Source: Escherichia phage vB_EcoM_TH18. Taken from it: a stretch of DNA of 64,000 bases. This document shows, piece by piece, positions 4,276 to 14,984 of this stretch. The notes under the pieces are model-generated. The model saw only the letters and a list, made by a program, of their open reading frames with translations, was not told the origin of the DNA and did not search any database. Both the position numbers and the translations under genes were made by a program. Position 1 is the first letter of the stretch. Each line of letters starts with the position of its first letter. The stretch is taken from sequence record ON075799, one strand, 5' to 3'.

Positions 4276-5609
4276 GATATATCACCATCACACTCAATAA
4301 TATTTTCAATCTTCAACGTTGTTTTTCTGTTTTCAGAAATACACAGACTATTAAAATTGCTAATATCGTACTGGATCTTAGATGTATCGCTTACAGAAAC
4401 CTCTAACAGAACTGCTCCAGGCTGATATATTGTAAACCCATAACTATCTCCCTCCCCGTTCTCACACAGAATTTTGTACTCTCCTCTTGCCTCCGCTTCA
4501 TCAACATAAAGTCTGAGAGTTGGAAAATTATTTGCTATATCTTCTTTGTGAAGCCCAACATGATGTTTATCTTTTGTTGGCATCATGAGATAGAAAACTT
4601 CCGCAGGACAAACTCCATATAGTTTTGTAAAATATTTCCTACCTGTTGCTTTTCTTAATCTTTGGAAAATACTGAACATATTAACTTTAGATACATCATT
4701 AAACGGCAACGGTTGCACAGGGGTAACATTTTTGTCTACCTGCTGGCAACAAGATTCTAATCTGTCTAGGAACTCAACCAAAGAATCAAGTGAAAACTGT
4801 TTTGTCTCATCAAAGATATCTGACAGTTTCATTCCGTACATCCCGCTAAGATGTGACTTTGCCGATTCCCAACTTTCTATCTGAAGGCTGGCAATAGCCA
4901 TAGCCAGTTTCATTGTCTCTTTTTTCGAAATTGTATAGCCACGAGATTTGTATTTTTCAGATCTCAAAAGTGATATAATCGGGTATTCAGTCTTATGATT
5001 TACAACTAAGACTCTTTGAGCAATATGTTTTAAGAAATTGCTATCAAATTCCCACACACCATCCTTGAAGTTAAAAGCGCCCATGTTGATTGTAAAATCA
5101 ACTTTGCTAAAGATATCTTCTGTTGTTTTGAACACATCCACAGCAACACACTGTAATACAGGATCCTGCCCAAAGTACAGCGTTACGCTCTTATCTGTCA
5201 CACCAACTCTGGTAAGATTTGGGAGATCATCTTCTTCAAGATGAAAATTTTCACATCTGGACAAAGGGTCTGTGAAACATAAATGCGTATCCTGCCCATT
5301 ATCAAGGTTATAAAAATACCTAAAAGTTCTTTTTTGATTTTCCCATCCGTTTGTCTGTGCGGTTAAATCATACTTTCCACTTAAAAGATTTTTATCCATC
5401 ATGTACGCAATGAATATCTCAAGATTTTCCCAAGATGGGAAATACAAATCAAGATCGTTGACTTTACTATTAGAGAACAAAGAGGTTATTGCCCCGCCAG
5501 CTATCTTAACATCCAGCTTCGACAATAAATCATAAACACCTTTTGGTATAAAAGAGCACAAAATGTCGTACTCTCTTTGAAAATCTTCTTTTTTGAAAAC
5601 ATGCAACAT
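4272..5609 (-). CDS. Pol-beta-superfamily nucleotidyltransferase-fold protein, function unknown
   Basis: Start refined to MLHVFKK (ATG at 5609); motif IAGGAITSLFSNSKVNDLDLYF fits the hG[GS]-x9-13-DhD nucleotidyltransferase signature; long C-terminal domain unassigned. Confidence 0.55.
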   Translation of the reverse strand: MLHVFKKEDFQREYDILCSFIPKGVYDLLSKLDVKIAGGAITSLFSNSKVNDLDLYFPSWENLEIFIAYMMDKNLLSGKYDLTAQTNGWENQKRTFRYFYNLDNGQDTHLCFTDPLSRCENFHLEEDDLPNLTRVGVTDKSVTLYFGQDPVLQCVAVDVFKTTEDIFSKVDFTINMGAFNFKDGVWEFDSNFLKHIAQRVLVVNHKTEYPIISLLRSEKYKSRGYTISKKETMKLAMAIASLQIESWESAKSHLSGMYGMKLSDIFDETKQFSLDSLVEFLDRLESCCQQVDKNVTPVQPLPFNDVSKVNMFSIFQRLRKATGRKYFTKLYGVCPAEVFYLMMPTKDKHHVGLHKEDIANNFPTLRLYVDEAEARGEYKILCENGEGDSYGFTIYQPGAVLLEVSVSDTSKIQYDISNFNSLCISENRKTTLKIENIIECDGDIS

Positions 5610-5660
5610 CTTAGCTATCCTTAAGTACAAAACAAGATGCGTAGAGACTAGCACATAAAG

Positions 5661-5682
5661 AAAAACCCCGCAAGAGGCGGGG
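5661..5682 (-). terminator. rho-independent terminator downstream of the tRNA cluster
   Basis: Hairpin ccccgc-aagag-gcgggg with A-run on plus strand (U-run on minus-strand transcript). Confidence 0.55.
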
Positions 5683-5814
5683 TTAGGCATAGGAGAGGAG
5701 ATTGATTGGATTATTATTATAGTTATTTGAGAAAAGTGGCGAAGGAACCTTTACATGTCGAGAGTGTCTTACCGTTTACTCAGCCACGACCCTCCTTAGT
5801 GTCCACTTTAATTC

Positions 5815-5893
5815 TGGTTGCGAGTATTGGAATCGAACCTGCAATCTTCAGGGTATGAACCTAACATGGTAAATCCATTTCCACCAATCTGCA
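5815..5893 (-). tRNA. degenerate tRNA-like element (anticodon-loop CAU; weak acceptor and T stems)
   Basis: Canonical T-loop GGTTCGATTCC, D stem and anticodon arm TTAGG-TTCATAC-CCTGA present, but T stem and acceptor have several mismatches. Confidence 0.3.
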
Positions 5894-5899
5894 ATAATT

Positions 5900-5975
5900 T
5901 GGTGTGACGGACAGGATTCGAACCTGTGACCACCTAGTCTTCAGCAAGGCACTCTACCAACTGAGTTACCGTCAC
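5900..5975 (-). tRNA. tRNA-Phe (anticodon GAA)
   Basis: Manual cloverleaf: acceptor GTGACGG/CCGTCAC, D arm ACTC/GAGT, anticodon loop CTGAAGA, T loop TTCGAAT, encoded CCA. Confidence 0.8.
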
Positions 5976-5980
5976 ATAAT

Positions 5981-6057
5981 TGGTGGGCGATGAGGGACTC
6001 GAACCCCCAAAATTCAGGTTCTAAGCCTGACATGTATACCAATTCCATCAATCGCCC
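5981..6057 (-). tRNA. tRNA with anticodon UAG (Leu-reading) but short variable arm
   Basis: Acceptor GGGCGAT/ATCGCCC, anticodon arm TCAGG-CTTAGAA-CCTGA, T arm GGGGG-TTCGAGT-CCCTC, CCA encoded; D stem has one mismatch. Confidence 0.55.
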
Positions 6058-6071
6058 ATCTATATTAACAG

Positions 6072-6263
6072 TTATGGTTTTCCACGATACACAGAAATAG
6101 TTTTCCCATTAGCATTGATAACATAAGCGGTCTGATCCTCAGACAAAAACACTTTTTGATCAATGCCGGAAATAGCTATAGACTTTTGATGAGCACAATA
6201 CCCAACAATTTTCCCACAAAAAATTTGTTCATCATTTGGAGAGACGACTTTAACTGTTAACAT
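6072..6263 (-). CDS. small hypothetical protein (63 aa) inside the tRNA cluster
   Basis: Start refined to MLTVKVV with RBS agagga 6 nt upstream; the longer ORF-track start would overlap tRNA-Pro. Confidence 0.45.
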   Translation of the reverse strand: MLTVKVVSPNDEQIFCGKIVGYCAHQKSIAISGIDQKVFLSEDQTAYVINANGKTISVYRGKP

Positions 6264-6305
6264 GGTATCCTCTGTACATTTCTGCTTTGATATGTTTATG
6301 TTTGT

Positions 6306-6383
6306 TGGTCTGTCCGGTTGGATTTGAACCAACGACCTGGTCATCCCAAGTGACCCGCGCTACCCAAGCTGCGCTACGGACAG
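6306..6383 (-). tRNA. tRNA-Pro (anticodon UGG)
   Basis: Perfect cloverleaf: acceptor CTGTCCG/CGGACAG, D arm GCGC/GCGC, anticodon arm GGTCA-CTTGGGA-TGACC, T loop TTCAAAT, CCA encoded. Confidence 0.85.
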
Positions 6384-6467
6384 AGAAATGTAGATTTTAA
6401 TTGTCCCAGAATCTACTAACTGGTATCGCTGGCTAGGTGATATCTGTGACTTGATTAAGTCAAGAAT

Positions 6468-6559
6468 TGGCGGTTCCTGAAGGATTCGAACCTTCGGTGG
6501 GGAGATTCATTCCCAACGGCTTAACAGGCCGTCACCATCGACCACTCGGTCAAAGAACC
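6468..6559 (-). tRNA. type II (long variable arm) tRNA with anticodon GUU; identity uncertain
   Basis: 92 nt; acceptor GGTTCTT/AGGAACC (one G-U), anticodon arm ACGGC-CTGTTAA-GCCGT, ~20 nt variable arm, T arm GAAGG-TTCGAAT-CCTTC, CCA encoded. Confidence 0.55.
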
Positions 6560-6568
6560 TGAATATTT

Positions 6569-6645
6569 TGGTGGATCTGGTTGGGGTCGAACCAACAATC
6601 TCTCGATTAAAAGTCGAGTGACTTAAACCATTTGGCTACAAATCC
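6569..6645 (-). tRNA. tRNA-Lys (anticodon UUU), weak D arm
   Basis: Acceptor GGATTTG/CAGATCC, anticodon arm CTCGA-CTTTTAA-TCGAG, T arm GTTGG-TTCGACC-CCAAC, CCA encoded; D stem poorly paired. Confidence 0.55.
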
Positions 6646-6663
6646 GTTAAATTATCTTTAAAA

Positions 6664-6691
6664 TAGCTAATTACTCGCACATAATTAGCTA
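6664..6691 (-). terminator. hairpin plus U-run (terminator-like) within tRNA cluster
   Basis: Inverted repeat tagctaatt...aattagcta followed on the minus strand by TTTTAAAGA. Confidence 0.3.
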
Positions 6692-6878
6692 TACGCAACA
6701 ACTCTCCAAGGAGAGCACACTAATGATCGATTACGATTATATGACTAAATTTAGACCATCATAAGTGTTTGGCTTACGCCAGTAAAGAGCGGACTGCTCT
6801 GGGGTATCGGTAAGATGGTTGCAGCCATCTACCGAAAAATCACACCAAGCAACTAAACAAGCTACATTAAAGATAACT

Positions 6879-6967
6879 TGGAGGAGGCTGACAGAATCGA
6901 ACTGTCACCATATCTCTACAGCGGGACTGGGTTCAAACCAGCTTGTGCACCATGCACCCCAGCCTCC
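6879..6967 (-). tRNA. tRNA-Ser (anticodon UGA), type II
   Basis: 89 nt; acceptor GGAGGCT/AGCCTCC, anticodon arm GCTGG-TTTGAAC-CCAGT, long variable arm, T arm GACAG-TTCGATT-CTGTC, CCA encoded. Confidence 0.7.
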
Positions 6968-7038
6968 AAAGATAGCCTCTGCCGAGGATATACACCCAAC
7001 AAAGGAGGCGCTCAGGTCAGAAGAAATCTGAGCCTTAA

Positions 7039-7132
7039 TGGAGGAAGATGCCAGACTTGAACTGGCACACCCATTTCTGGGTTACTATCTCCTTAGCAGG
7101 GAGATCCCTTACCAAATTAGGGTTAATCTTCC
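7039..7132 (-). tRNA. tRNA-Ser (anticodon GCU), type II
   Basis: 94 nt; acceptor GGAAGAT/ATCTTCC, 3-bp D stem, anticodon arm TCTCC-CTGCTAA-GGAGA, T arm GCCAG-TTCAAGT-CTGGC, CCA encoded. Confidence 0.75.
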
Positions 7133-7153
7133 AATACCTTAGTAATTAAAAAC

Positions 7154-7243
7154 TGGTGGAGAAGGAGAGAATCGAACTCTCAAGCCGTTTTACCAGTCAG
7201 CACATTTCCAATGTGCTTTCGTCGCCAATCGATTTGCTTCTCC
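7154..7243 (-). tRNA. tRNA-Ser (anticodon GGA), type II
   Basis: 90 nt; acceptor GGAGAAG/CTTCTCC, anticodon arm GCACA-TTGGAAA-TGTGC, long variable arm, T arm GAGAG-TTCGATT-CTCTC, CCA encoded. Confidence 0.65.
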
Positions 7244-7252
7244 GTTTTAACT

Positions 7253-7328
7253 TGGCAGGGGATGGTTGATTCGAACAACCGATCACGGGGTCAAAGCCCG
7301 TTGCATTAGGCCACTATGCTAATCCCCT
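7253..7328 (-). tRNA. tRNA-Gln (anticodon UUG)
   Basis: Perfect cloverleaf: acceptor AGGGGAT/ATCCCCT, D arm GCAT/ATGC, anticodon arm ACGGG-CTTTGAC-CCCGT, T loop TTCGAAT, CCA encoded. Confidence 0.85.
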
Positions 7329-7333
7329 TTTGC

Positions 7334-7410
7334 ACGAGAGTGAGGAATAGAACCTCTTAGTCACTGGTTTTGGAGGCCAGCCTTCACCCAGTGAAGTTAC
7401 GCTACTCTCA
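7334..7410 (-). tRNA. non-canonical tRNA-like element
   Basis: Good acceptor (TGAGAGT/ACTCTCG) and T-loop-like GGTTCTATTCC, but D and anticodon regions do not fold into standard arms; no encoded CCA. Confidence 0.3.
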
Positions 7411-7417
7411 TTAAAAA

Positions 7418-7975
7418 CTATTTTCGAAAAGGACTTATGAAAAATGCCAACATCACTCTCTCTCTTGAAAAAGCTCTGTCTTCAGGAACCACACTCTTCA
7501 GTTTCCAACCGACATAAATTCGCCAGTAAAATTGTTTTCCAAACAATCTAAAAGACGGGACAAACGCGAATACACCCCACGCATTGTCATTCCACATCAA
7601 CAAATAGCCTTGTTGGTTATCCTCCACATCAGAGCTTACATGGAGGTTTCCTTTCCACTTTGTCACAGATGTGATTTCACGTCCAAGTACGTGATAGGAG
7701 AAATTGTAGGCTTTATTTCTCCACAACCAAGCAACTCGTTGTAGGTAAACACCAAAACTTCCTATTTTACGGACTTCTTCCCATCTCTCTATGTGTCCTC
7801 TATCACCGTCTATAGGATTATCATATGTCTCCATCCACCTGAAAATATAAGGCAGATGCCCTGTCTTCTCATTATAGAACGGAACAACAAAAGGAGCCAG
7901 AATAACACAGAGAACCGACATAACTGGGTCAAGAGGTGCTAACAGGATCCACGATAAATATTTTAAGTATCTCAT
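7418..7975 (-). CDS. hypothetical protein (185 aa, hydrophobic N-terminus)
   Basis: ORF from six-frame track; start overlaps stop of upstream gene (ATGA). Confidence 0.5.
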   Translation of the reverse strand: MRYLKYLSWILLAPLDPVMSVLCVILAPFVVPFYNEKTGHLPYIFRWMETYDNPIDGDRGHIERWEEVRKIGSFGVYLQRVAWLWRNKAYNFSYHVLGREITSVTKWKGNLHVSSDVEDNQQGYLLMWNDNAWGVFAFVPSFRLFGKQFYWRIYVGWKLKSVVPEDRAFSRERVMLAFFISPFRK

Positions 7976-8202
7976 GCAGGATCAAGCCTAGATATAATGT
8001 ACTGGTTTAAATCTGAATATGGGAAGATACTTTCAAAGATAACCTGTTTAAATCTGAAGCCGCACAAACCGAAAAGTACCTTCTGACACTCACCAAAAGA
8101 GCAATCTTTACCAACTTTTATCACAACCGTATCGGCAATCTGCACACTTTCTATCTCTTTAGATTCATGATGCCGTACTATGATTACTTTAGAAACCATC
8201 AT
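7972..8202 (-). CDS. hypothetical protein (76 aa)
   Basis: ORF from six-frame track; translationally coupled to downstream gene. Confidence 0.45.
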   Translation of the reverse strand: MMVSKVIIVRHHESKEIESVQIADTVVIKVGKDCSFGECQKVLFGLCGFRFKQVIFESIFPYSDLNQYIISRLDPA

Positions 8203-8327
8203 ACTCGTCCATATTAAAGCCTTCTACTAAAGATAGTAGATGTCTAGGGTTGGACCGCAAACGCAACCCCATGGAATTTGTTACGGTCTTCAGTTGACCC
8301 AAGCGGATTTCATTGACATCTTTTAAC

Positions 8328-8402
8328 TGGAGCATCCAGAGGGTATCGAACCCTCGACTTCAGCTTGGAAGGCTGTAGTTTTCCCAATTAAACTATGGAT
8401 GC
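8328..8402 (-). tRNA. tRNA-Gly (anticodon UCC)
   Basis: Acceptor GCATCCA/TGGATGC, D arm GTTT/AAAC, anticodon arm (A)CAGC-CTTCCAA-GCTG, T arm GAGGG-TTCGATA-CCCTC, CCA encoded. Confidence 0.75.
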
Positions 8403-8407
8403 ATATT

Positions 8408-8483
8408 TGGTGGGAGTGGTAGGCTCTGCCCCTACGTCCTCTCGATTATCGGTCGAGCGATCTACTAACTGATCTACACTCCC
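8408..8483 (-). tRNA. tRNA-like cloverleaf with Ile-type anticodon GAU but non-canonical D and T loops and C at position 33
   Basis: All four stems perfectly paired, CCA encoded, but D loop AGTTAGTA lacks GG, T loop is GGCAGAG (no TTC), anticodon loop is CCGATAA. Confidence 0.5.
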
Positions 8484-8546
8484 AAACTGTACTGGCCCAA
8501 CAACCACGATTGGAGGGTATCGTCACACATCAAAGCCAGTACAGTT
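8484..8546. other. long perfect hairpin (13-bp stem, ~37-nt loop) between two tRNA genes
   Basis: aaactgtactggc (8484-8496) and gccagtacagttt (8534-8546) are exact reverse complements. Confidence 0.6.
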
Positions 8547-8551
8547 TTAGT

Positions 8552-8641
8552 TGGTGTGCCGTGATAGAGTCGAACTACCCGAGTCCCTTTCGAGACAGGA
8601 GATTTACAGTCTCCCCCGCTACCCCTACGGTCTAACGACAC
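8552..8641 (-). tRNA. tRNA-Tyr (anticodon GUA), type II
   Basis: 90 nt; acceptor GTGTCGT/ACGGCAC (one G-U), anticodon arm GGAGA-CTGTAAA-TCTCC, long variable arm, T loop TTCGACT, CCA encoded. Confidence 0.7.
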
Positions 8642-8642
8642 A

Positions 8643-8990
8643 TTAACCTTGTTTGAATTGAACAATATCCGTCGAGAACGGTTTAGCTGCCTTAATAGGT
8701 GCTTTTTCTGAGTTATCTTTTTCGAGTAACTCTTCGTTTTCCTCATCAAAGTAATCAGAAAGCATCTGCTCACCTTTCTCAATAACATAACGAGCTATAT
8801 TTTCTCTGATATTGTCTTTTGTATTCACATTCTTCATCAAATCCCTAAGAACCTGATGAGCTTCAGGAATCATTGCAATCAGATTCGTTTTTAAATCTAG
8901 GATATTTTTCTCTAACTGAATTGCATTAGATTCCTCTTTCAGAGGACGACCTTTTCCTCTTCTACGTTTTGTAAGCTGCTTAGTAGCCAT
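8643..8990 (-). CDS. hypothetical protein (116 aa, basic N-terminus)
   Basis: Start refined to MATKQLTKRRRGKG; the longer ORF-track N-terminus overlaps the tRNA cluster; sigma70-like promoter just upstream. Confidence 0.5.
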   Translation of the reverse strand: MATKQLTKRRRGKGRPLKEESNAIQLEKNILDLKTNLIAMIPEAHQVLRDLMKNVNTKDNIRENIARYVIEKGEQMLSDYFDEENEELLEKDNSEKAPIKAAKPFSTDIVQFKQG

Positions 8991-9009
8991 TTTAAAACCC
9001 CACTTAATG

Positions 9010-9039
9010 ATATTATCAAATAAAAACATATCTGTCAAG
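9010..9039 (-). promoter_or_regulatory. sigma70-like promoter (TTGACA, 18-nt spacer, TAATAT)
   Basis: Minus strand reads TTGACA...TAATAT shortly upstream of the ATG at 8990. Confidence 0.5.
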
Positions 9040-9075
9040 TGGTATTTTAACATATTTACCAAGAAATTGAAAGTT

Positions 9076-9152
9076 TGGAGCACGGTGTCGGACTTGAACC
9101 GACATATATCTGTTTTGCAGACAGATCCGTAACCAAATTCCAGCAACCGTGC
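9076..9152 (-). tRNA. tRNA-Cys (anticodon GCA)
   Basis: Acceptor GCACGGT/ACCGTGC, anticodon arm TCTGT-CTGCAAA-ACAGA, T arm GTCGG-TTCAAGT-CCGAC, CCA encoded; D stem weak. Confidence 0.65.
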
Positions 9153-9228
9153 AATAAGTACCCCAGGTAGAGAACCTATAGAGTGGGTCTTACGAGCCGC
9201 GCTGACGATTCTCAAGTTGGGGTTAATC

Positions 9229-9305
9229 TGGTCGAGGAGACAGGATTCGAACCTGTGACCTACGGCTTAGAAGGCCGCTGCTCTATCCAACTGAGCTACA
9301 CCCCG
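9229..9305 (-). tRNA. tRNA-Arg (anticodon UCU)
   Basis: D arm GCTC-AGTTGGATA-GAGC, anticodon arm GCGGC-CTTCTAA-GCCGT, T arm ACAGG-TTCGAAT-CCTGT, CCA encoded; acceptor has one mismatch. Confidence 0.7.
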
Positions 9306-9505
9306 AAAATAAGAATGCTTTATAGTGTATGGTTACTCAACCTCACTCCAACTTCCACAGTTGGTGCTCTACGAGCATGACTACGTTTGAAATCAACGTT
9401 GCGCACCGATAGCTTTCTCACGCATTGTATGCCTCATTCCCAACAAATGCTGATCAGACATTTATATCGAATAATATAAGCTAATACACTATAAAACAAA
9501 CTTGT

Positions 9506-9602
9506 GGCTGGGTGATGGAATCGAACCACCTATGTATTCAACGGCTTCCCCGTCTATTTTCAGGATTATAAATCCTCGCCCTTGCCAAAGGGCTTACCCA
9601 GC
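9506..9602 (-). tRNA. over-long (97 nt) tRNA-like element, anticodon arm ambiguous
   Basis: Perfect acceptor (GCTGGGT/ACCCAGC), D arm GCCC-TTTGGCAA-GGGC, T arm GGTGG-TTCGATT-CCATC; central region has only a 4-bp stem with loop TTTATAA and ~30 extra nt; no encoded CCA. Confidence 0.35.
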
Positions 9603-9604
9603 AT

Positions 9605-9679
9605 TGGTGCTCGCAGCAGGTTTCGAACCTGCAACCCCCTGCTTACAAGGCAGGTGCTCTACCGTTGAGCTATACGAGC
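9605..9679 (-). tRNA. tRNA-Thr (anticodon UGU)
   Basis: Acceptor GCTCGTA/TGCGAGC, D arm GCTC/GAGC, anticodon arm CCTGC-CTTGTAA-GCAGG, T arm GCAGG-TTCGAAA-CCTGC, CCA encoded. Confidence 0.85.
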
Positions 9680-10044
9680 AATAAGACATTGCTTCCGATT
9701 AACAGCCTTGAGGCTTTACAGACCATATCTTGTGAGCCATAACCTGTGCCAAGGATTTCAGATGATAAACGAAATTTTATCTTTCAAGAGTCAACTTTCA
9801 AGTTTCATCTTTTACATTTAACCATTGACCTTTATTGTATGAACTTTTACTTAGTGGAAACAACAAGGCATCTTCGTGTGCCTCGCTGCATCTATGTCCT
9901 GTATTATCCTCATACATATACGATACATGGTGGGGGATATTTAACCTCCAACCCCCAGGAGGCAAGATGATGTAAACTTCGTTAATCAAAAGCAATGTTT
10001 TAAATTTCAAAACAAAGGAACGATAATGATATTATCAGAGCCTT

Positions 10045-10692
10045 TTAGAGAGAGTGCTCAATCTCAATTTCTGTCTTAGCGTTTGACTCAGACAACGCAA
10101 AATCAACGTTAGACAAGAAATCTTCAATCTCTTCTTCAAGAGAACGAATCTTAGAAGCCAGTTCAAGAGGATCCACAACCGATGGTGTGTTCATCATTCG
10201 AATAGGAGCTTCCACAGTCTTAATCTGCTCTGCATCTGGCGCTTTATCACGTTGGATATATGGCGCTCTTGCATTTTCAAGTTTATCTTCCAGAGATTTT
10301 TCTTCTTTTGCCAGAAGAAGCTGTGCAGAAGCACGCTGTGCACAAAGTTTGTTTAACAACTCTTGTTTAAAGCAAATCGTCCGTTTGCGTTCGATTGCCT
10401 CAGCAACTGTCATAGACACATTACCAATTTTGACAATTGTCTCAGCATTAGACTTAACAATTTTTGCTTTCAGTTCATCACGCACTGCCAAGAGGTCTTG
10501 CAGACTTTGATAGTCGTTGATCGCAGATTTCTTAAAATCATCAACAGAGCCGATATAACCCGGAATCTTACAATTATTCTCAGTTCCTTTTGCAATCTTA
10601 ATACAATCAAGATTGTAGATACGCTTATTGATCTTATCTTCAATTTTAGAGATAGAAGCAAGTGCACGAGTTACGGAAATCTTAGTAGACAT
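10045..10692 (-). CDS. hypothetical protein (215 aa, charged coiled-coil-like)
   Basis: ORF from six-frame track; charged, heptad-like composition. Confidence 0.55.
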   Translation of the reverse strand: MSTKISVTRALASISKIEDKINKRIYNLDCIKIAKGTENNCKIPGYIGSVDDFKKSAINDYQSLQDLLAVRDELKAKIVKSNAETIVKIGNVSMTVAEAIERKRTICFKQELLNKLCAQRASAQLLLAKEEKSLEDKLENARAPYIQRDKAPDAEQIKTVEAPIRMMNTPSVVDPLELASKIRSLEEEIEDFLSNVDFALSESNAKTEIEIEHSL

Positions 10693-10765
10693 GCGATCTC
10701 TCCTATGTAAATCAGCTTTGATAAAGTAACTATCCAGAAAAACAAAAACTATGTCAAGAAAAATT

Positions 10766-10957
10766 TTAATCTTTTACAGCATCTTTTATAGAATCACAAA
10801 GATCTTGAACAACATCAGATGTCGGTGACAAAATCATCTCGTCGGCTGCTGCTATAGCATCTGATGCTAAATCAACAAACGGAGTTGTTACCGCAGAAGT
10901 CACTTCAACAGCCGTTATTGTTACTTCGCTTGCAATCTTAAGCAAAGATCCTATCAT
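10766..10957 (-). CDS. hypothetical small acidic protein (63 aa)
   Basis: ORF from six-frame track in an otherwise gene-free gap. Confidence 0.4.
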   Translation of the reverse strand: MIGSLLKIASEVTITAVEVTSAVTTPFVDLASDAIAAADEMILSPTSDVVQDLCDSIKDAVKD

Positions 10958-11033
10958 AATCTCAACCCTCCTGAATATCCGTGATTCCCTTTATTTAACG
11001 ACGCTGGCTCACGGTGGCACTCTCGTCAATAAA

Positions 11034-11357
11034 CTATTTTTTAGTTTTCTTACCGTTTTCTACAGAAATGCTTGTTTTCTGTTTCGCTTCTCGTTCGCGC
11101 TTTGTTTTCCCAGTGCGAATACGATATGAAGCAGAAATAACTTCACCACCAATGACACGAGACACAGATTCGTAATACATTTCAGTATTACCGTCTTCAT
11201 CTTTGCGTTTTTTCAGAACTGCTACAGTTTGCGTTTTACCACCAAGGCGCACATCGTGCGGTGCAGAATGTGTCTGCGTGGATTTTGATCCAAACTGAAA
11301 AGGTTGCTTTATCGCCTCGATAGCTGACACCTTTTTAGCAGACTGTTTCTTAGCCAT
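11034..11357 (-). CDS. hypothetical basic protein (107 aa)
   Basis: Start refined to MAKKQSAKK with strong RBS ggagga upstream; lysine/arginine-rich. Confidence 0.55.
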   Translation of the reverse strand: MAKKQSAKKVSAIEAIKQPFQFGSKSTQTHSAPHDVRLGGKTQTVAVLKKRKDEDGNTEMYYESVSRVIGGEVISASYRIRTGKTKREREAKQKTSISVENGKKTKK

Positions 11358-11408
11358 TAAGTTTTCTCCTCCGAAAACAATAAACATAGTTTATTTCGTG
11401 TGCCACAT

Positions 11409-11485
11409 TTGGTGGCCCCTGCTGGACTTGAACCAGCGACCAAGCGATTATGAGTCACCTGCTCTATCCAACTGAGCTAAGGGGC
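11409..11485 (-). tRNA. tRNA-Met (anticodon CAU; initiator/elongator/Ile2 not distinguished)
   Basis: Acceptor GGCCCCT/AGGGGCC, D arm GCTC-AGTTGGATA-GAGC, anticodon loop CTCATAA, T arm GCTGG-TTCAAGT-CCAGC, CCA encoded. Confidence 0.8.
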
Positions 11486-11818
11486 CGAATCTCTTAATAT
11501 GAGATGATATTATCCTGTATGATCTACATTGTCAAGAGATATTTTAAAATTTTATACATCCCAGTTTTCTTCTTGATAACAACCTTCCCCGAATCCAACT
11601 TCTTTTTCAAAATCAATACCTTTTTTCATACATTCCTCACATTAACAGATATTGTTTTCAAACTCAAAACGTAAAATACGAACTCTGTCAATACACTGCT
11701 GTAATCTACAAAGCAACAACTCAACTTGTTTATGCGTCTCTTCAGTATACGTTTTGGTCATCTTGCTTTTCTCCGTGATCTTTTCATTGCAGCTTCTGCA
11801 CGTCTTTGTTTACGATTT

Positions 11819-12395: not shown

Positions 12396-14111
12396 TTAAA
12401 GCTGTGATAAGGCTCTTTGGCGAATTTCTTCAAGATCCTCATCCACAAGCAGCTTACCATTAACAAAAACTGTTCTAAGCTCGTTATCATGGTCAGATAC
12501 TTGGTTAATACCAAGATTATCTACCAGCTTCAACTCGCCATCATCACCACGAATAACTTTAACAAAACCTTTCGCAGATTTCTTCCCAAGATCAGTCTTA
12601 GGCTCTTTTACGACCATTACTTGTCTGCCATCAATCACAGCACCAGTAGCTTTTACAGCCATCCCAAGAGAATCACGGGTTGTATATTGCGTTGTATAAG
12701 ACCCTACACCAAACACAATGTTACTGGAAGCAAACCCTCGTTCTTCAAGGCGCTCAAAGATCTCTTTAGCACGGGAGATTGTGATAGAGTCTCCGTAGAT
12801 TAAACCAACATGGCTATCAAGAACTTTGTAACCCAAAGAGTTTACACTACCACCAAAGATTTCCCACAAGCATTGTACAGCACCCTTAACTTCCTCTTTT
12901 GTCAGATAATTTGTAAATTCATCACCTGTCAAAGATTTCCAATCTACGAGGTTGCCTTCCGAATCTCGCATCCATGAAGTGTCTCTGGACATCTCGTATA
13001 AAGTGACATATTTGCCATTTTTAAACAGCACAGCATCCATGTCACAGCACTGCCCCGTTGCCCATTCTTCCTGAGAGCACACGCGATAACCAGCAATGAT
13101 GTGCTCTGGGATCCCACTGTCAGGTCGGAAGACCAGCTTGCCATCACGAGACATAATCTCATCTTTCAGGATTTTTGCTGCCTGTGTAATGATTGCCCAA
13201 AAATCATAGCTGTCAGCGACGTATGAAGCATAACCTGATGGGAAAATCTCTGTCACATAACGCTTTAAGAACTCAACTTCAGCACGAAAACGTGCTTCAT
13301 CAAGCGGCATATCAGGATTTTCCTGCTGGATACGCTCAACAATAAAACCAATGTTCGTTGTCGCTACGCTATGCTCAGATGCGGGAATAGACCCAGCAAC
13401 AAAGCGACCTTTCATGTTGTAATAGCGATTTGCGTAAACAATCGCTGGAATTGTATCTGTGCCCATTGAGCTAATCAGTTGCCCAAATTCGCTCTGTGCT
13501 GCGTCATGTGTTCCAGCTTCACCACGGTATGCAAAACAATGGTTCTGGAAAGGAACATGATCGTTGTTATCACATGTTTTCTTTGCCCACAGTTCTGATA
13601 GTTTACGGTATTGCCAGAAAGTCGTTGCCGTGGTAATTGTCTTCCAAGTCTCCGATGAGATCACGCTCTCAAGGAAGTTCGGCAGCCAGTAAAAATCAGG
13701 ATGCGTGTTCTGAATCGTGAACATGGGAACCTGAACAGGAACAAGAGTTCCTTCAGGCAAAGCCCTAATTTCAATTGGGAGATAACCAAGGTCATGCAAT
13801 TTCTCAAAACCCCAAGTTTCAACAGCATCCTTCCCAATGCTCAAATCACAAATCTCTTTGTAATCCTGAATCGCCTTTTCTTTCGGTAAAGCGAAGAAAT
13901 TATTATTAAACATGTCGATCAGGAACCACTTGATAAATCCCTGAAGACCTGCAAACATCACACGATGGTCATCATCTGCAAAGTGTACAAAGTGTTTCAC
14001 ATTGCGTGGGGTCATGTTGTCTTGAACAAACTGTGAACGTCTATCGTACATCGAGATGTGACTTGGTTTATAAAAATCTGCGAACAGCAATGGACTTTCT
14101 TTGTGAAGCAT
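12396..14111 (-). CDS. nadV: nicotinamide phosphoribosyltransferase (NAMPT/NadV family)
   Basis: 571 aa; overall resemblance to the NAMPT family by eye (not searched); adjacent to a PRPP synthetase gene. Confidence 0.7.
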   Translation of the reverse strand: MLHKESPLLFADFYKPSHISMYDRRSQFVQDNMTPRNVKHFVHFADDDHRVMFAGLQGFIKWFLIDMFNNNFFALPKEKAIQDYKEICDLSIGKDAVETWGFEKLHDLGYLPIEIRALPEGTLVPVQVPMFTIQNTHPDFYWLPNFLESVISSETWKTITTATTFWQYRKLSELWAKKTCDNNDHVPFQNHCFAYRGEAGTHDAAQSEFGQLISSMGTDTIPAIVYANRYYNMKGRFVAGSIPASEHSVATTNIGFIVERIQQENPDMPLDEARFRAEVEFLKRYVTEIFPSGYASYVADSYDFWAIITQAAKILKDEIMSRDGKLVFRPDSGIPEHIIAGYRVCSQEEWATGQCCDMDAVLFKNGKYVTLYEMSRDTSWMRDSEGNLVDWKSLTGDEFTNYLTKEEVKGAVQCLWEIFGGSVNSLGYKVLDSHVGLIYGDSITISRAKEIFERLEERGFASSNIVFGVGSYTTQYTTRDSLGMAVKATGAVIDGRQVMVVKEPKTDLGKKSAKGFVKVIRGDDGELKLVDNLGINQVSDHDNELRTVFVNGKLLVDEDLEEIRQRALSQL

Positions 14112-14174: not shown

Positions 14175-14984
14175 TTAAAAATTTTCTGTCCAGTCGTAGT
14201 ACGCATAGATTTCGTCAACGCCACCGTTGAGAATAAATTCTTTCCCACGAGAGAAAATCCCATGCGTGACATACAAGATAACACGTTTAGCACCAGCAGC
14301 TTTCAAGGCTTGAGCTAAGTTTGTAAACGTAAACCCACCATCGCAGATATCATCAACAATCAGGCACATCTTCCCATCGACATCACCAAACACTGTTGTG
14401 CCTGTGATTGCCCCTGTTCCCACATCACGGATTTTACCAGCTTCAACCACAGATAGTTCCAAGGCATCAGCTACCTTCTGGGTCTTCTTGCGTGCACCTG
14501 CATCTGGAGCAACCAACACAAGCGATTCGTCCGTAAGCAGATCAAAATCAAACTTCATGTTCAAGAACAATTCAGTCTGAGAACGAATTTTCACGTTATC
14601 AAGCAGTGCTGCGGATACGTCACTGTGTGGGTCATCGACGATGACTTTGTGGAAACCCAGCGAGTTAATCATTGTGGCAAAGACTTTCACCGACAGAGCT
14701 TCACCAGGGTTCATAACTCGGTCTTGTCGAGCATACGGGATGTACGGCAGGTGTAAAACCTTTTCCACACCAACATCCAAATTGCCAAGACGATTGACTG
14801 CATCAACAAGCAACGCAAGACACATCACATCTTGGGAGTGCTTAATGCGAGCGAAGATATCCACAAAACCAATCGAACCCTTAGGGATATAGTGCATATC
14901 GATCTTCACCTGCTCCTCACCACCACTGAAGGTAAAATGGTCAACTGGAACATGCAACTTGTTCAAACTCAAACGAATATTCAT
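14175..14984 (-). CDS. prs: ribose-phosphate pyrophosphokinase (PRPP synthetase)-like
   Basis: Motifs PYIPYARQDR, VAPDAGARKK and PRPP-binding LIVDDICDGGFT match the Prs family pattern. Confidence 0.7.
   Translation of the reverse strand: MNIRLSLNKLHVPVDHFTFSGGEEQVKIDMHYIPKGSIGFVDIFARIKHSQDVMCLALLVDAVNRLGNLDVGVEKVLHLPYIPYARQDRVMNPGEALSVKVFATMINSLGFHKVIVDDPHSDVSAALLDNVKIRSQTELFLNMKFDFDLLTDESLVLVAPDAGARKKTQKVADALELSVVEAGKIRDVGTGAITGTTVFGDVDGKMCLIVDDICDGGFTFTNLAQALKAAGAKRVILYVTHGIFSRGKEFILNGGVDEIYAYYDWTENF

Follow-up and report, generated by a model that had tools for sequence, protein, structure and literature searches.

By textbook rule, the variable arm of bacterial transfer RNAs (tRNAs) is long only in the serine, leucine, tyrosine and selenocysteine (Sec) species, and annotation as well as identity models are built on this rule. 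The 64,000-nucleotide (nt) stretch of Escherichia phage vB_EcoM_TH18 analysed here (ON075799; the window) contains a tRNA gene at 6468-6559 in which a long arm is combined with the asparagine anticodon GUU. Is this an asparagine tRNA of unusual build, a serine or tyrosine tRNA that mistranslates asparagine codons, or a gene in decay? We consider that it is probably a functional class-II-shaped tRNA-Asn, which would be charged by the asparaginyl-tRNA synthetase (AsnRS) of the host, and it has relatives in many other phages.

Structure, distribution and selection of the long-arm tRNA-Asn

ARAGORN called 6468-6559 on the minus strand as tRNA-Asn(gtt) of 92 nt, and the Rfam tRNA model (RF00005) matched the same interval with 56.8 bits (E = 1.3e-10), above its gathering score of 29. 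The Rfam match spans the full model, with the surplus bases forming an insertion in the variable region. RNAfold gave a minimum free energy of -34.5 kcal/mol (z = -2.44) for the 92-nt tRNA, and its fold also contains three of the hairpins, those of the anticodon (ACGGC/CUGUUAA/GCCGU), the extra arm (GGGA/UCCC) and the T arm. None of the three programs gives another placement of the anticodon. The earlier note, which had described an atypical 92-nt type II tRNA with a GUU anticodon, was thus borne out on this point; its interval was exact, and only the strand had to be corrected to minus.

The cloverleaf (Table 1) is composed of a 7-base-pair (bp) acceptor stem, a 4-bp D stem, a 5-bp anticodon stem, a 20-nt variable region, a 5-bp T stem, G73 and an encoded CCA, with UG between the acceptor and D stems and a single G (G26) before the anticodon stem. 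UCGA in the D-loop is read as U20, C20a, G20b and A21, the position numbering here and below being our own reading. The CACC tail after the extra arm (6496-6499, minus strand) is complementary to GGUG (6533-6536, the 3' strand of the D stem plus G26), and the two are paired by RNAfold; this pairing could be a tertiary contact or an alternative fold. Across the long-arm Asn family the consensus of the tail is CAYC (Y, pyrimidine).

The region is 100% identical, tRNA included, in Escherichia phages 18-1-2, 19-1-2 and 24-2-1. In phage Av-05 (Vequintavirinae, Avunavirus) the region is 95.7% and the tRNA 97.8% identical, with GUU kept. Distant blastn matches revealed annotated long tRNA-Asn genes in the Salmonella jumbo phage 7t3 (89 nt), in the Seunavirus phages GAP31 (89 nt), PVP-SE1 (85 nt), 4MG and VIK251 (the last two known from matches of about 89 bases annotated tRNA-Asn alone), and in phiKZ-like Pseudomonas phages, for example OMKO1 (87 nt). 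The genes of 7t3, GAP31, PVP-SE1 and OMKO1 were called Asn(gtt) by ARAGORN, and each is the sole Asn tRNA in the tRNA locus examined. A comparison with the tRNA sets of related phages, which the earlier note had proposed, finds the long Asn(GUU) again in Av-05 and in these four phages. The loop CUGUUAA, G73, the encoded CCA and a short extra-arm stem are common to the tRNAs of the window, 7t3, GAP31, PVP-SE1 and OMKO1, and the stem sequences differ between the lineages of the five (GGGA/UCCC, GAGA/UCUC, GAGU/ACUC, GGC/GCC).

Two long genes annotated tRNA-Lys, of 86-87 nt, in GAP31 (locus L002, 5745-5831) and PVP-SE1 (locus L003, 5848-5933) were considered as a parallel case and rejected. ARAGORN reads the GAP31 stretch as Ser(UGA) in another register (5651-5739) and gives an ambiguous call with a 4-base anticodon (ggca) for PVP-SE1; both are probably mis-annotation artefacts.

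In IMG/VR, the pattern CTGTTAA, a gap of 18-36 and GGTTCRAATCC matched at least 120 stretches, and ARAGORN found at least 102 long-arm Asn(GUU) genes in the loci of the matches listed; together with the reference phages these comprise 98 unique sequences. A second scan also admitted short-arm genes, and 12 of its 120 stretches were long-arm, so about a tenth of the viral Asn(GUU) genes with this T-loop are long among the matches listed. For prokaryotes, a narrower pattern was searched in one genome of each species and gave at least 123 cellular matches. Among the matches listed, 25 of 123 were true long-arm Asn genes, mostly inside dense arrays of 7-22 tRNA genes, and most of the rest were genes for Ser(UGA), archaeal tRNAs with an intron or incomplete 3' copies of tRNA-Asn. 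These sequence comparisons point to a conserved family carried by many large phages and by putatively mobile tRNA arrays, among them arrays in bacterial assemblies. In GenBank its members are labelled plain tRNA-Asn, or are unannotated in the closest relatives of the window, and we found no description of a long-arm tRNA-Asn in the open-access literature on non-canonical tRNAs, tRNA identity, tRNA arrays and phage tRNAs. The family is thus widespread and apparently undescribed.

Two further observations were made in the cellular scan. A near-invariant long-arm Asn(GUU) of 87 nt, whose first pair is U1-A72 and whose arm is GAGG-GCAA-CCUC, occurs in six loci from different species genomes (L138, L185, L208, L221, L235 and L243), in arrays of up to 17 tRNA genes; record titles were displayed for L138 and L185 alone, and both are metagenome-assembled genomes (MAGs) of Planctomycetota. 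Repeated partial copies of the tRNA-Asn 3' half, in each of which CUGUUAA is followed by a palindromic insert, are located at a distance of a few hundred bases from the intact gene in nine loci (L130, L158, L162, L165, L169, L176, L213, L227 and L245) and others, the titles displayed being mostly MAGs of the Verrucomicrobiota lineage. By their sequence, these copies look like integration-site duplications or scars.

The extra arm itself is under selection. A hairpin of at least 3 bp is present in the variable region of 93% of the 98 unique long Asn tRNAs, versus 64% in shuffles (maximum 74% in 500 shuffles), and one of at least 4 bp in 55% versus 21%. The 98 tRNAs contain 60 distinct stem sequences; their loops are mostly GNRA tetraloops (GAAA in 31), and CACC or CAUC is the usual unpaired tail on the 3' side. 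When 27 relatives were aligned, compensatory changes on both sides were seen at all four pairs of the extra arm, and the outer three are paired in 27, 26 and 26 of the 27 rows, comparable to the anticodon and T stems as controls. Extra-arm cells were paired in 94.2%, versus 69.1% after shuffling and 34-50% with the partners slid by 1-3 columns. Some rows of the MAFFT alignment had their 5' end displaced by a single column, and the count was therefore confined to the helices of the anticodon, the extra arm and the T arm. This covariation, together with the hairpin enrichment, rules out a decaying gene.

Identity marks, arm geometry and lineage

The identity of E. coli tRNA-Asn resides in the three anticodon bases and G73 and is transferable to a different tRNA body, and U1-A72 directs amidation by GatCAB where AsnRS is absent (PMC9976931). 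The key determinants for tyrosine are A73 and U35, A73 is crucial for leucine, and G73 counteracts the leucyl- and tyrosyl-tRNA synthetases (LeuRS and TyrRS); serine identity comes mainly from the arm, and G1-C72 and G2-C71 are conserved in bacterial tRNA-Ser (PMC9976931).

The window tRNA carries G34-U35-U36 as well as G73, the Asn marks, and not the A73 and GUA of tRNA-Tyr. For the family, 102 long Asn tRNAs were compared with the short Asn, Tyr, Leu and Ser tRNAs of viral loci, among the matches listed. The discriminator is G73 in 93 of 102 long Asn, 38 of 39 short Asn and 45 of 62 Ser tRNAs, and A73 in 41 of 41 Tyr and 50 of 52 Leu tRNAs. The first pair is U1-A72 in 55% of the long and 51% of the short Asn tRNAs, so that the split between U1-A72 and G1-C72 is the same in both, and Tyr, Leu and Ser tRNAs have mostly G1. 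The window tRNA has G1-C72, as has the tRNA-Asn of phage T5, in place of the U1-A72 used with a non-discriminating aspartyl-tRNA synthetase and GatCAB; E. coli charges tRNA-Asn directly by AsnRS. The version in OMKO1 carries U1-A72, the pair required for the GatCAB route (PMC9976931). This fits a Pseudomonas host, which makes Asn-tRNA in that way.

Compared with canonical tRNA-Asn (E. coli asnT and T5), the loop CUGUUAA, G73 and CCA are the same. The differences are in the variable region (5 nt there, and 20 nt with a 4-bp hairpin here, the anomaly against a class I body with its 4-5-nt variable loop), in the D-loop, which is shorter there, and at position 39, where the host has U and the window tRNA G. 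The D-loops of long Asn tRNAs comprise 9-11 nt, as in class II tRNAs, versus 7-8 nt in short Asn tRNAs, which indicates a co-adapted core, more than an inserted arm.

The geometry of the arm, as read from its pairing, is Tyr-like and not Ser-like. The extra-arm stem has 3-4 bp in 88% of the long Asn tRNAs, mostly 3 in Tyr, 2-6 in long-arm Leu and mostly 5-7 bp in Ser tRNAs, and the short Asn tRNAs have none. Unpaired nucleotides on the 3' side of the arm number 3-4 in 71% of the long Asn tRNAs, mostly 3 in Tyr, mostly 1-2 in Leu and 0-1 in 82% of the Ser tRNAs, again with none in short Asn. In E. coli tyrT the arm stem is 3 bp long with UUC after it, and in serU it is 6 bp long with one C after it; the 4 bp plus CACC of the window tRNA correspond to the short Tyr-type arm with about three unpaired 3' nucleotides, not to the 5-7 bp and 0-1 nt of the Ser type. 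Bacterial tRNA-Tyr shares with it one unpaired nucleotide 5' of the arm, a stem of 3-4 bp, a tetraloop-type loop and 3-4 unpaired nucleotides 3', and E. coli tyrT also shares the identical T arm and G34-U35. tRNA-Tyr differs in A73 and A36, against G73 and U36 here, and the acceptor stem here is of Asn type.

As to lineage, identity was computed over 43 fixed structural positions. On average the long Asn tRNAs are nearest to the short Asn tRNAs resident in the same loci (0.565), versus 0.43-0.53 for every other tRNA type (Tyr 0.506, Ser 0.513). They are not specifically near the co-resident Tyr tRNAs, and the idea that they arose recently out of Tyr or Ser tRNAs in the same loci was rejected, as neither type is enriched among the nearest neighbours over these positions. 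Among host and phage tRNAs, the best comparator of the window tRNA is the ordinary 78-nt T5 tRNA-Asn, whose acceptor stem (GGUUCCU/AGGAACC) agrees with that of the window (GGUUCUU/AGGAACC) in 13 of 14 positions; in the 7t3 version the last 28 nt (T arm, 3' acceptor strand, G73 and CCA) are exactly those of T5. T5 tRNA-Asn is functional in E. coli, and its expression helps to rescue PARIS toxicity (PMC12409363). The T5-like acceptor stem indicates that the window tRNA joins the acceptor and T half of a phage tRNA-Asn to a class-II-type core. The core looks mosaic by its sequence, with a T arm that equals the one of E. coli tRNA-Tyr (17/17) and a D arm (ACCG-AGUGGUCGA-UGGU) which resembles that of tRNA-Ser in G9, C11-G24 and G at 20b.

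The codons also bear on which amino acid is inserted. The nicotinamide phosphoribosyltransferase (NAMPT) homologue of the phage (12399-14111, minus strand) aligned to solved NAMPT structures with E = 1e-124. About ten of its asparagines encoded by AAC or AAU (AAY), counted by eye in the printed alignment, sit on Asn of the homologue (for example fnNnff/fnNenff, tiqNt/tieNt, ssNivfg/svNvvfg and fvNgkll/fiNgqll), and no AAY sits on Ser in this alignment. In 37 long open reading frames of the window, which has 40% guanine plus cytosine (GC), AAY makes up 47.6 per 1000 codons. Other codons read by phage tRNAs amount to 25.8 (ACA), 11.8 (AUA), 8.8 (CUA) and 50.3 (AAA) per 1000, and this usage fits the classical view that phage tRNAs supply heavily used codons.

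We propose that the tRNA would be transcribed within a minus-strand tRNA cluster and most probably charged with Asn by the host AsnRS through G34-U35-U36 and G73. The charged tRNA would then decode AAC and AAU as Asn and supply an AT-rich phage heavy in Asn codons. The design of the family is an Asn-type acceptor and T half joined to a class-II-type core with a long D-loop, a short Tyr-like hairpin and a 3-4-nt tail of CAYC type. Phage tRNA sets that are nearly complete have it as their sole Asn tRNA, in the place of this amino acid.

Alternative explanations and the possible role of the arm

The earlier note had offered a decayed Ser or Tyr tRNA, or a sequencing-level change of the anticodon in a Ser(GCU) or Tyr(GUA) gene. 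GUU is one substitution from both GCU and GUA and the T arm is that of E. coli tRNA-Tyr, but a pseudogene, a recent anticodon mutation or a sequencing error is hardly conceivable, and the comparative data refute it for practical purposes: the gene is 100% identical in three phage records and keeps GUU at 97.8% identity in Av-05, GUU recurs in about 100 independent, divergent relatives among the matches listed, the compensatory changes keep the stems paired in unrelated phages, the discriminator is G and not the A of tRNA-Tyr, the acceptor half is T5-Asn-like (13/14), and the phage has its own Ser(GCU) and Tyr(GUA) genes in the same cluster. The note had also suggested a recoding or mistranslating tRNA. 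Seryl-tRNA synthetase (SerRS) ignores the anticodon and reads the long arm, and could in this way place Ser at Asn codons; the long arm, G73, G1-C72, G2-C71, C11-G24 and the Ser-like D-loop with G20b would suit it, and the SerRS-charged allo-tRNAs, which likewise have a scaffold-mismatched anticodon, are a natural precedent (PMC7609411). We hold this very unlikely. The arm is of Tyr type, with a 4-bp stem and four unpaired nucleotides before the T stem, versus 5-7 bp and 0-1 nt in the Ser tRNAs of E. coli and of phages; 55% of the family have U1-A72 against the conserved G1-C72 and G2-C71 of bacterial tRNA-Ser; and GUU, G73 and, where GatCAB is used, U1-A72 are conserved, though SerRS charging needs none of them. 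The acceptor and T half is that of T5 tRNA-Asn, the acceptor/T stems are the canonical 7/5 and not the 8/4 or 9/3 of allo-tRNAs (PMC7609411), and G73 acts against TyrRS and LeuRS beside the full AsnRS identity set. With AAY at about 4.8% of the codons and placed on Asn, never on Ser, in NAMPT, efficient Ser insertion would be highly damaging.

A dual identity, in which charging with Asn is accompanied by a low level of SerRS or TyrRS charging and the resulting statistical mistranslation is tolerated or useful, seems quite unlikely to us. The Asn set does coexist with an acceptor stem and a D arm that recall Ser in some features, with an extra arm and a T arm that recall Tyr, and with the G34-U35 read by TyrRS, and on computation alone the Ser-like features leave room for low-level serylation; on the other side, G73 is an antideterminant for TyrRS and LeuRS (PMC9976931), the Tyr-type arm disfavours SerRS, and the sequences hold no hint of selection for ambiguity. 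Quite unlikely, too, is that the tRNA is not primarily a substrate of translation and acts as a decoy or competitive inhibitor of host tRNA-targeting nucleases, or in another tRNA-like role. Some viral tRNAs possibly inhibit AriB by competition (PMC12409363), and the host already has four Asn tRNA genes of its own. However, G73, CCA, U1-A72 (with GatCAB hosts) and the exact CUGUUAA loop are conserved, which indicates selection for charging and decoding, and the Asn slot is filled in near-complete sets. Several points weigh against charging by AsnRS as an ordinary tRNA-Asn. The Ser-like features add up to G1-C72, G2-C71, G9, C11-G24, G20b and G73, of which G1-C72, G2-C71 and G73 are the serine set, and the arm stem exceeds that of E. 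coli tRNA-Tyr by one or two pairs. Class II synthetases approach the tRNA from the variable-loop side, and a long arm could therefore hinder AsnRS. Arms on other tRNA species, described below, make a purely Asn-specific explanation incomplete.

What the arm could do for a functional tRNA-Asn is suggested by the tRNA-cleaving defence systems. AriB of PARIS cleaves the host's Lys(UUU), Thr(UGU) as well as Asn(GUU) tRNAs at 40|41, beside a UAAU motif; in an AlphaFold 3 model of AriB a second subunit reads the D-loop (U16), and further tRNA contacts are suspected (PMC12409363). The extra arm emerges between these contact areas, the anticodon-stem cleavage site and the D-loop, and near the site the window tRNA differs from the host, with U-A-A-G-C-C in place of U36-A-A-U39-C40|C41 (U39 to G). 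The leading idea, a speculative one, is that the arm alters the face of the tRNA (3' strand of the anticodon stem, variable region and D-loop) that is read by nucleases such as AriB. We might then speculate, with considerable doubt, that the extra arm and the class-II D-loop serve anti-defence, making tRNA-Asn invisible to tRNA-cleaving nucleases while charging by AsnRS is kept via the anticodon and G73, and likewise, less often, for Thr(UGU), Ile(UAU), Cys and Met tRNAs. The nuclease-resistant phage tRNAs (T5 tRNA-Lys, -Thr and -Asn against AriB, phage tRNA-Tyr against retron and PtuAB) are likewise phage copies of nuclease-targeted species, and the phage studied here also has Lys(UUU) and Thr(UGU). 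The escapes known so far rely on point substitutions in tRNAs with a short arm. An added arm is not known as an escape device. The PARIS work contains no long-arm tRNA-Asn, the T5 tRNA-Asn used there being the 78-nt short-arm one (PMC12409363); as T5 escapes PARIS with it, the arm is not needed for that escape, which counts against an arm-specific role in evading PARIS.

Genes of at least 82 nt in loci with a long Asn tRNA comprise Cys (9 of 30), Met (12 of 71), Thr(UGU) (10 of 49) and Ile(UAU) (4 of 15), and by our own sum about 8% of the tRNAs there are long once Ser, Leu, Tyr and Asn are set aside. Loci with short Asn alone have about 14 such tRNAs with a variable region of at least 10 nt, an estimated 3% or so (all counts among the matches listed). 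The tendency seems to belong to particular phage tRNA sets, and Asn is its most frequent case.

The surrounding tRNA cluster and the meaning of the family

The positions of the tRNA parts and of the cluster are given in Table 1.

Table 1. Features of the long-arm tRNA-Asn and of its cluster in the window
Feature	Position	Strand	Remark
Whole gene, long-arm tRNA-Asn(GUU), 92 nt including encoded CCA	6468-6559	-	ARAGORN, Rfam, RNAfold
Acceptor stem, 5' strand, GGUUCUU (G1, G2)	6553-6559	-	Both strands: 13/14 match with T5 tRNA-Asn
D arm, ACCG-AGUGGUCGA-UGGU; 4-bp stem, C11-G24, 9-nt class-II-type loop	6534-6550	-	
Anticodon arm, ACGGC-CUGUUAA-GCCGU	6516-6532	-	Positions 36-41 U-A-A-G-C-C vs U-A-A-U-C-C in host tRNA-Asn
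Anticodon GUU, reading AAC and AAU	6523-6525	-	ARAGORN, Rfam
Variable region, 20 nt: U44, stem GGGA/UCCC, loop AUGAAUC, unpaired 3' tail CACC	6496-6515	-	
T arm, GAAGG-UUCGAAU-CCUUC	6479-6495	-	Identical (17/17) to that of tRNA-Tyr in E. coli
Acceptor stem, 3' strand, AGGAACC	6472-6478	-	
Discriminator G73	6471	-	Asn (and Ser) determinant; antideterminant for TyrRS and LeuRS (PMC9976931)
Encoded 3' CCA	6468-6470	-	
tRNA cluster, 16 ARAGORN calls and 3 further Rfam tRNA hits, all minus	5815-11486	-	
Sigma-70-like promoter match TTTACT-17-TATGAT, 9/12	6758-6786	-	Upstream of tRNA-Lys and tRNA-Asn; weak evidence
Terminator-like hairpin (intrinsic type), 8 bp, 6 GC, then T run	5664-5684	-	Downstream of the last tRNA of this cluster part

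The long-arm tRNA is the sole Asn tRNA of the cluster, which holds Ser(GCU), Tyr(GUA), Lys(UUU) and Thr(UGU) genes separately. In Av-05 no tRNA gene lies outside the equivalent cluster, indicating that the long tRNA is the only Asn tRNA of the phage. The closest relatives (OK136180, OK181858, OK181861 and KM190144/NC_025830, corresponding to 5500-9800 of the window) carry coding sequences for "hypothetical protein" across the cluster and zero tRNA annotations, which is an annotation gap.

Other tRNAs of the cluster, all on the minus strand, are also unusual. A second long non-canonical tRNA of 97 nt (9506-9602; Rfam 33.1 bits) was missed by ARAGORN; it has the anticodon loop UUUAUAA (UAU, Ile/AUA) and a variable region of about 28-30 nt with a GACGG/CCGUU hairpin, and long Ile(UAU) genes were also seen in IMG/VR loci (4 of 15 and 2 of 14). 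The hit at 8411-8483 (53.4 bits, no ARAGORN call) has the anticodon loop CCGAUAA (GAU, Ile) with C in place of the universal U33, an aberrant T-loop GGCAGAG and an encoded CCA. At 7336-7407, after tRNA-Gln, there is a Trp(CCA)-like tRNA with an odd D arm and no ARAGORN call, matched by the tRNA-Sec model only and below its threshold (32 bits versus 47). The tRNA-Leu(UAG) at 5981-6057 shows the opposite of the Asn anomaly, a short arm (77 nt, A73); Leu tRNAs of this short kind are frequent in viral loci, for example 14 of 28 Leu(UAG), and E. coli LeuRS does not require the long arm (PMC9976931).

Beyond the cluster, the NAMPT gene (12396-14111) and a ribose-phosphate pyrophosphokinase homologue (14175-14984) lie side by side on the minus strand, a pair predicted to act in NAD salvage. 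The Av-05 annotations include a tRNA nucleotidyltransferase and an RNA ligase family protein (locus L005, 37094-38338; locus L357, 43070-44104), with an endoribonuclease and a "valyl tRNA synthetase modifier" elsewhere in the genome; by their annotations, these genes might possibly resemble a toolkit for tRNA repair or processing.

That a large conserved family of tRNA-Asn breaks the long-arm rule was unexpected. If its members are charged by AsnRS, this class IIb synthetase would tolerate a long arm on its approach side. If the arm blocks defence nucleases, it would be a new kind of counter-defence, and scaffold swapping could in that case serve phages generally, as a strategy separate from the known escapes by point mutation. 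If instead the arm attracts SerRS, these phages would carry a natural mistranslation device.

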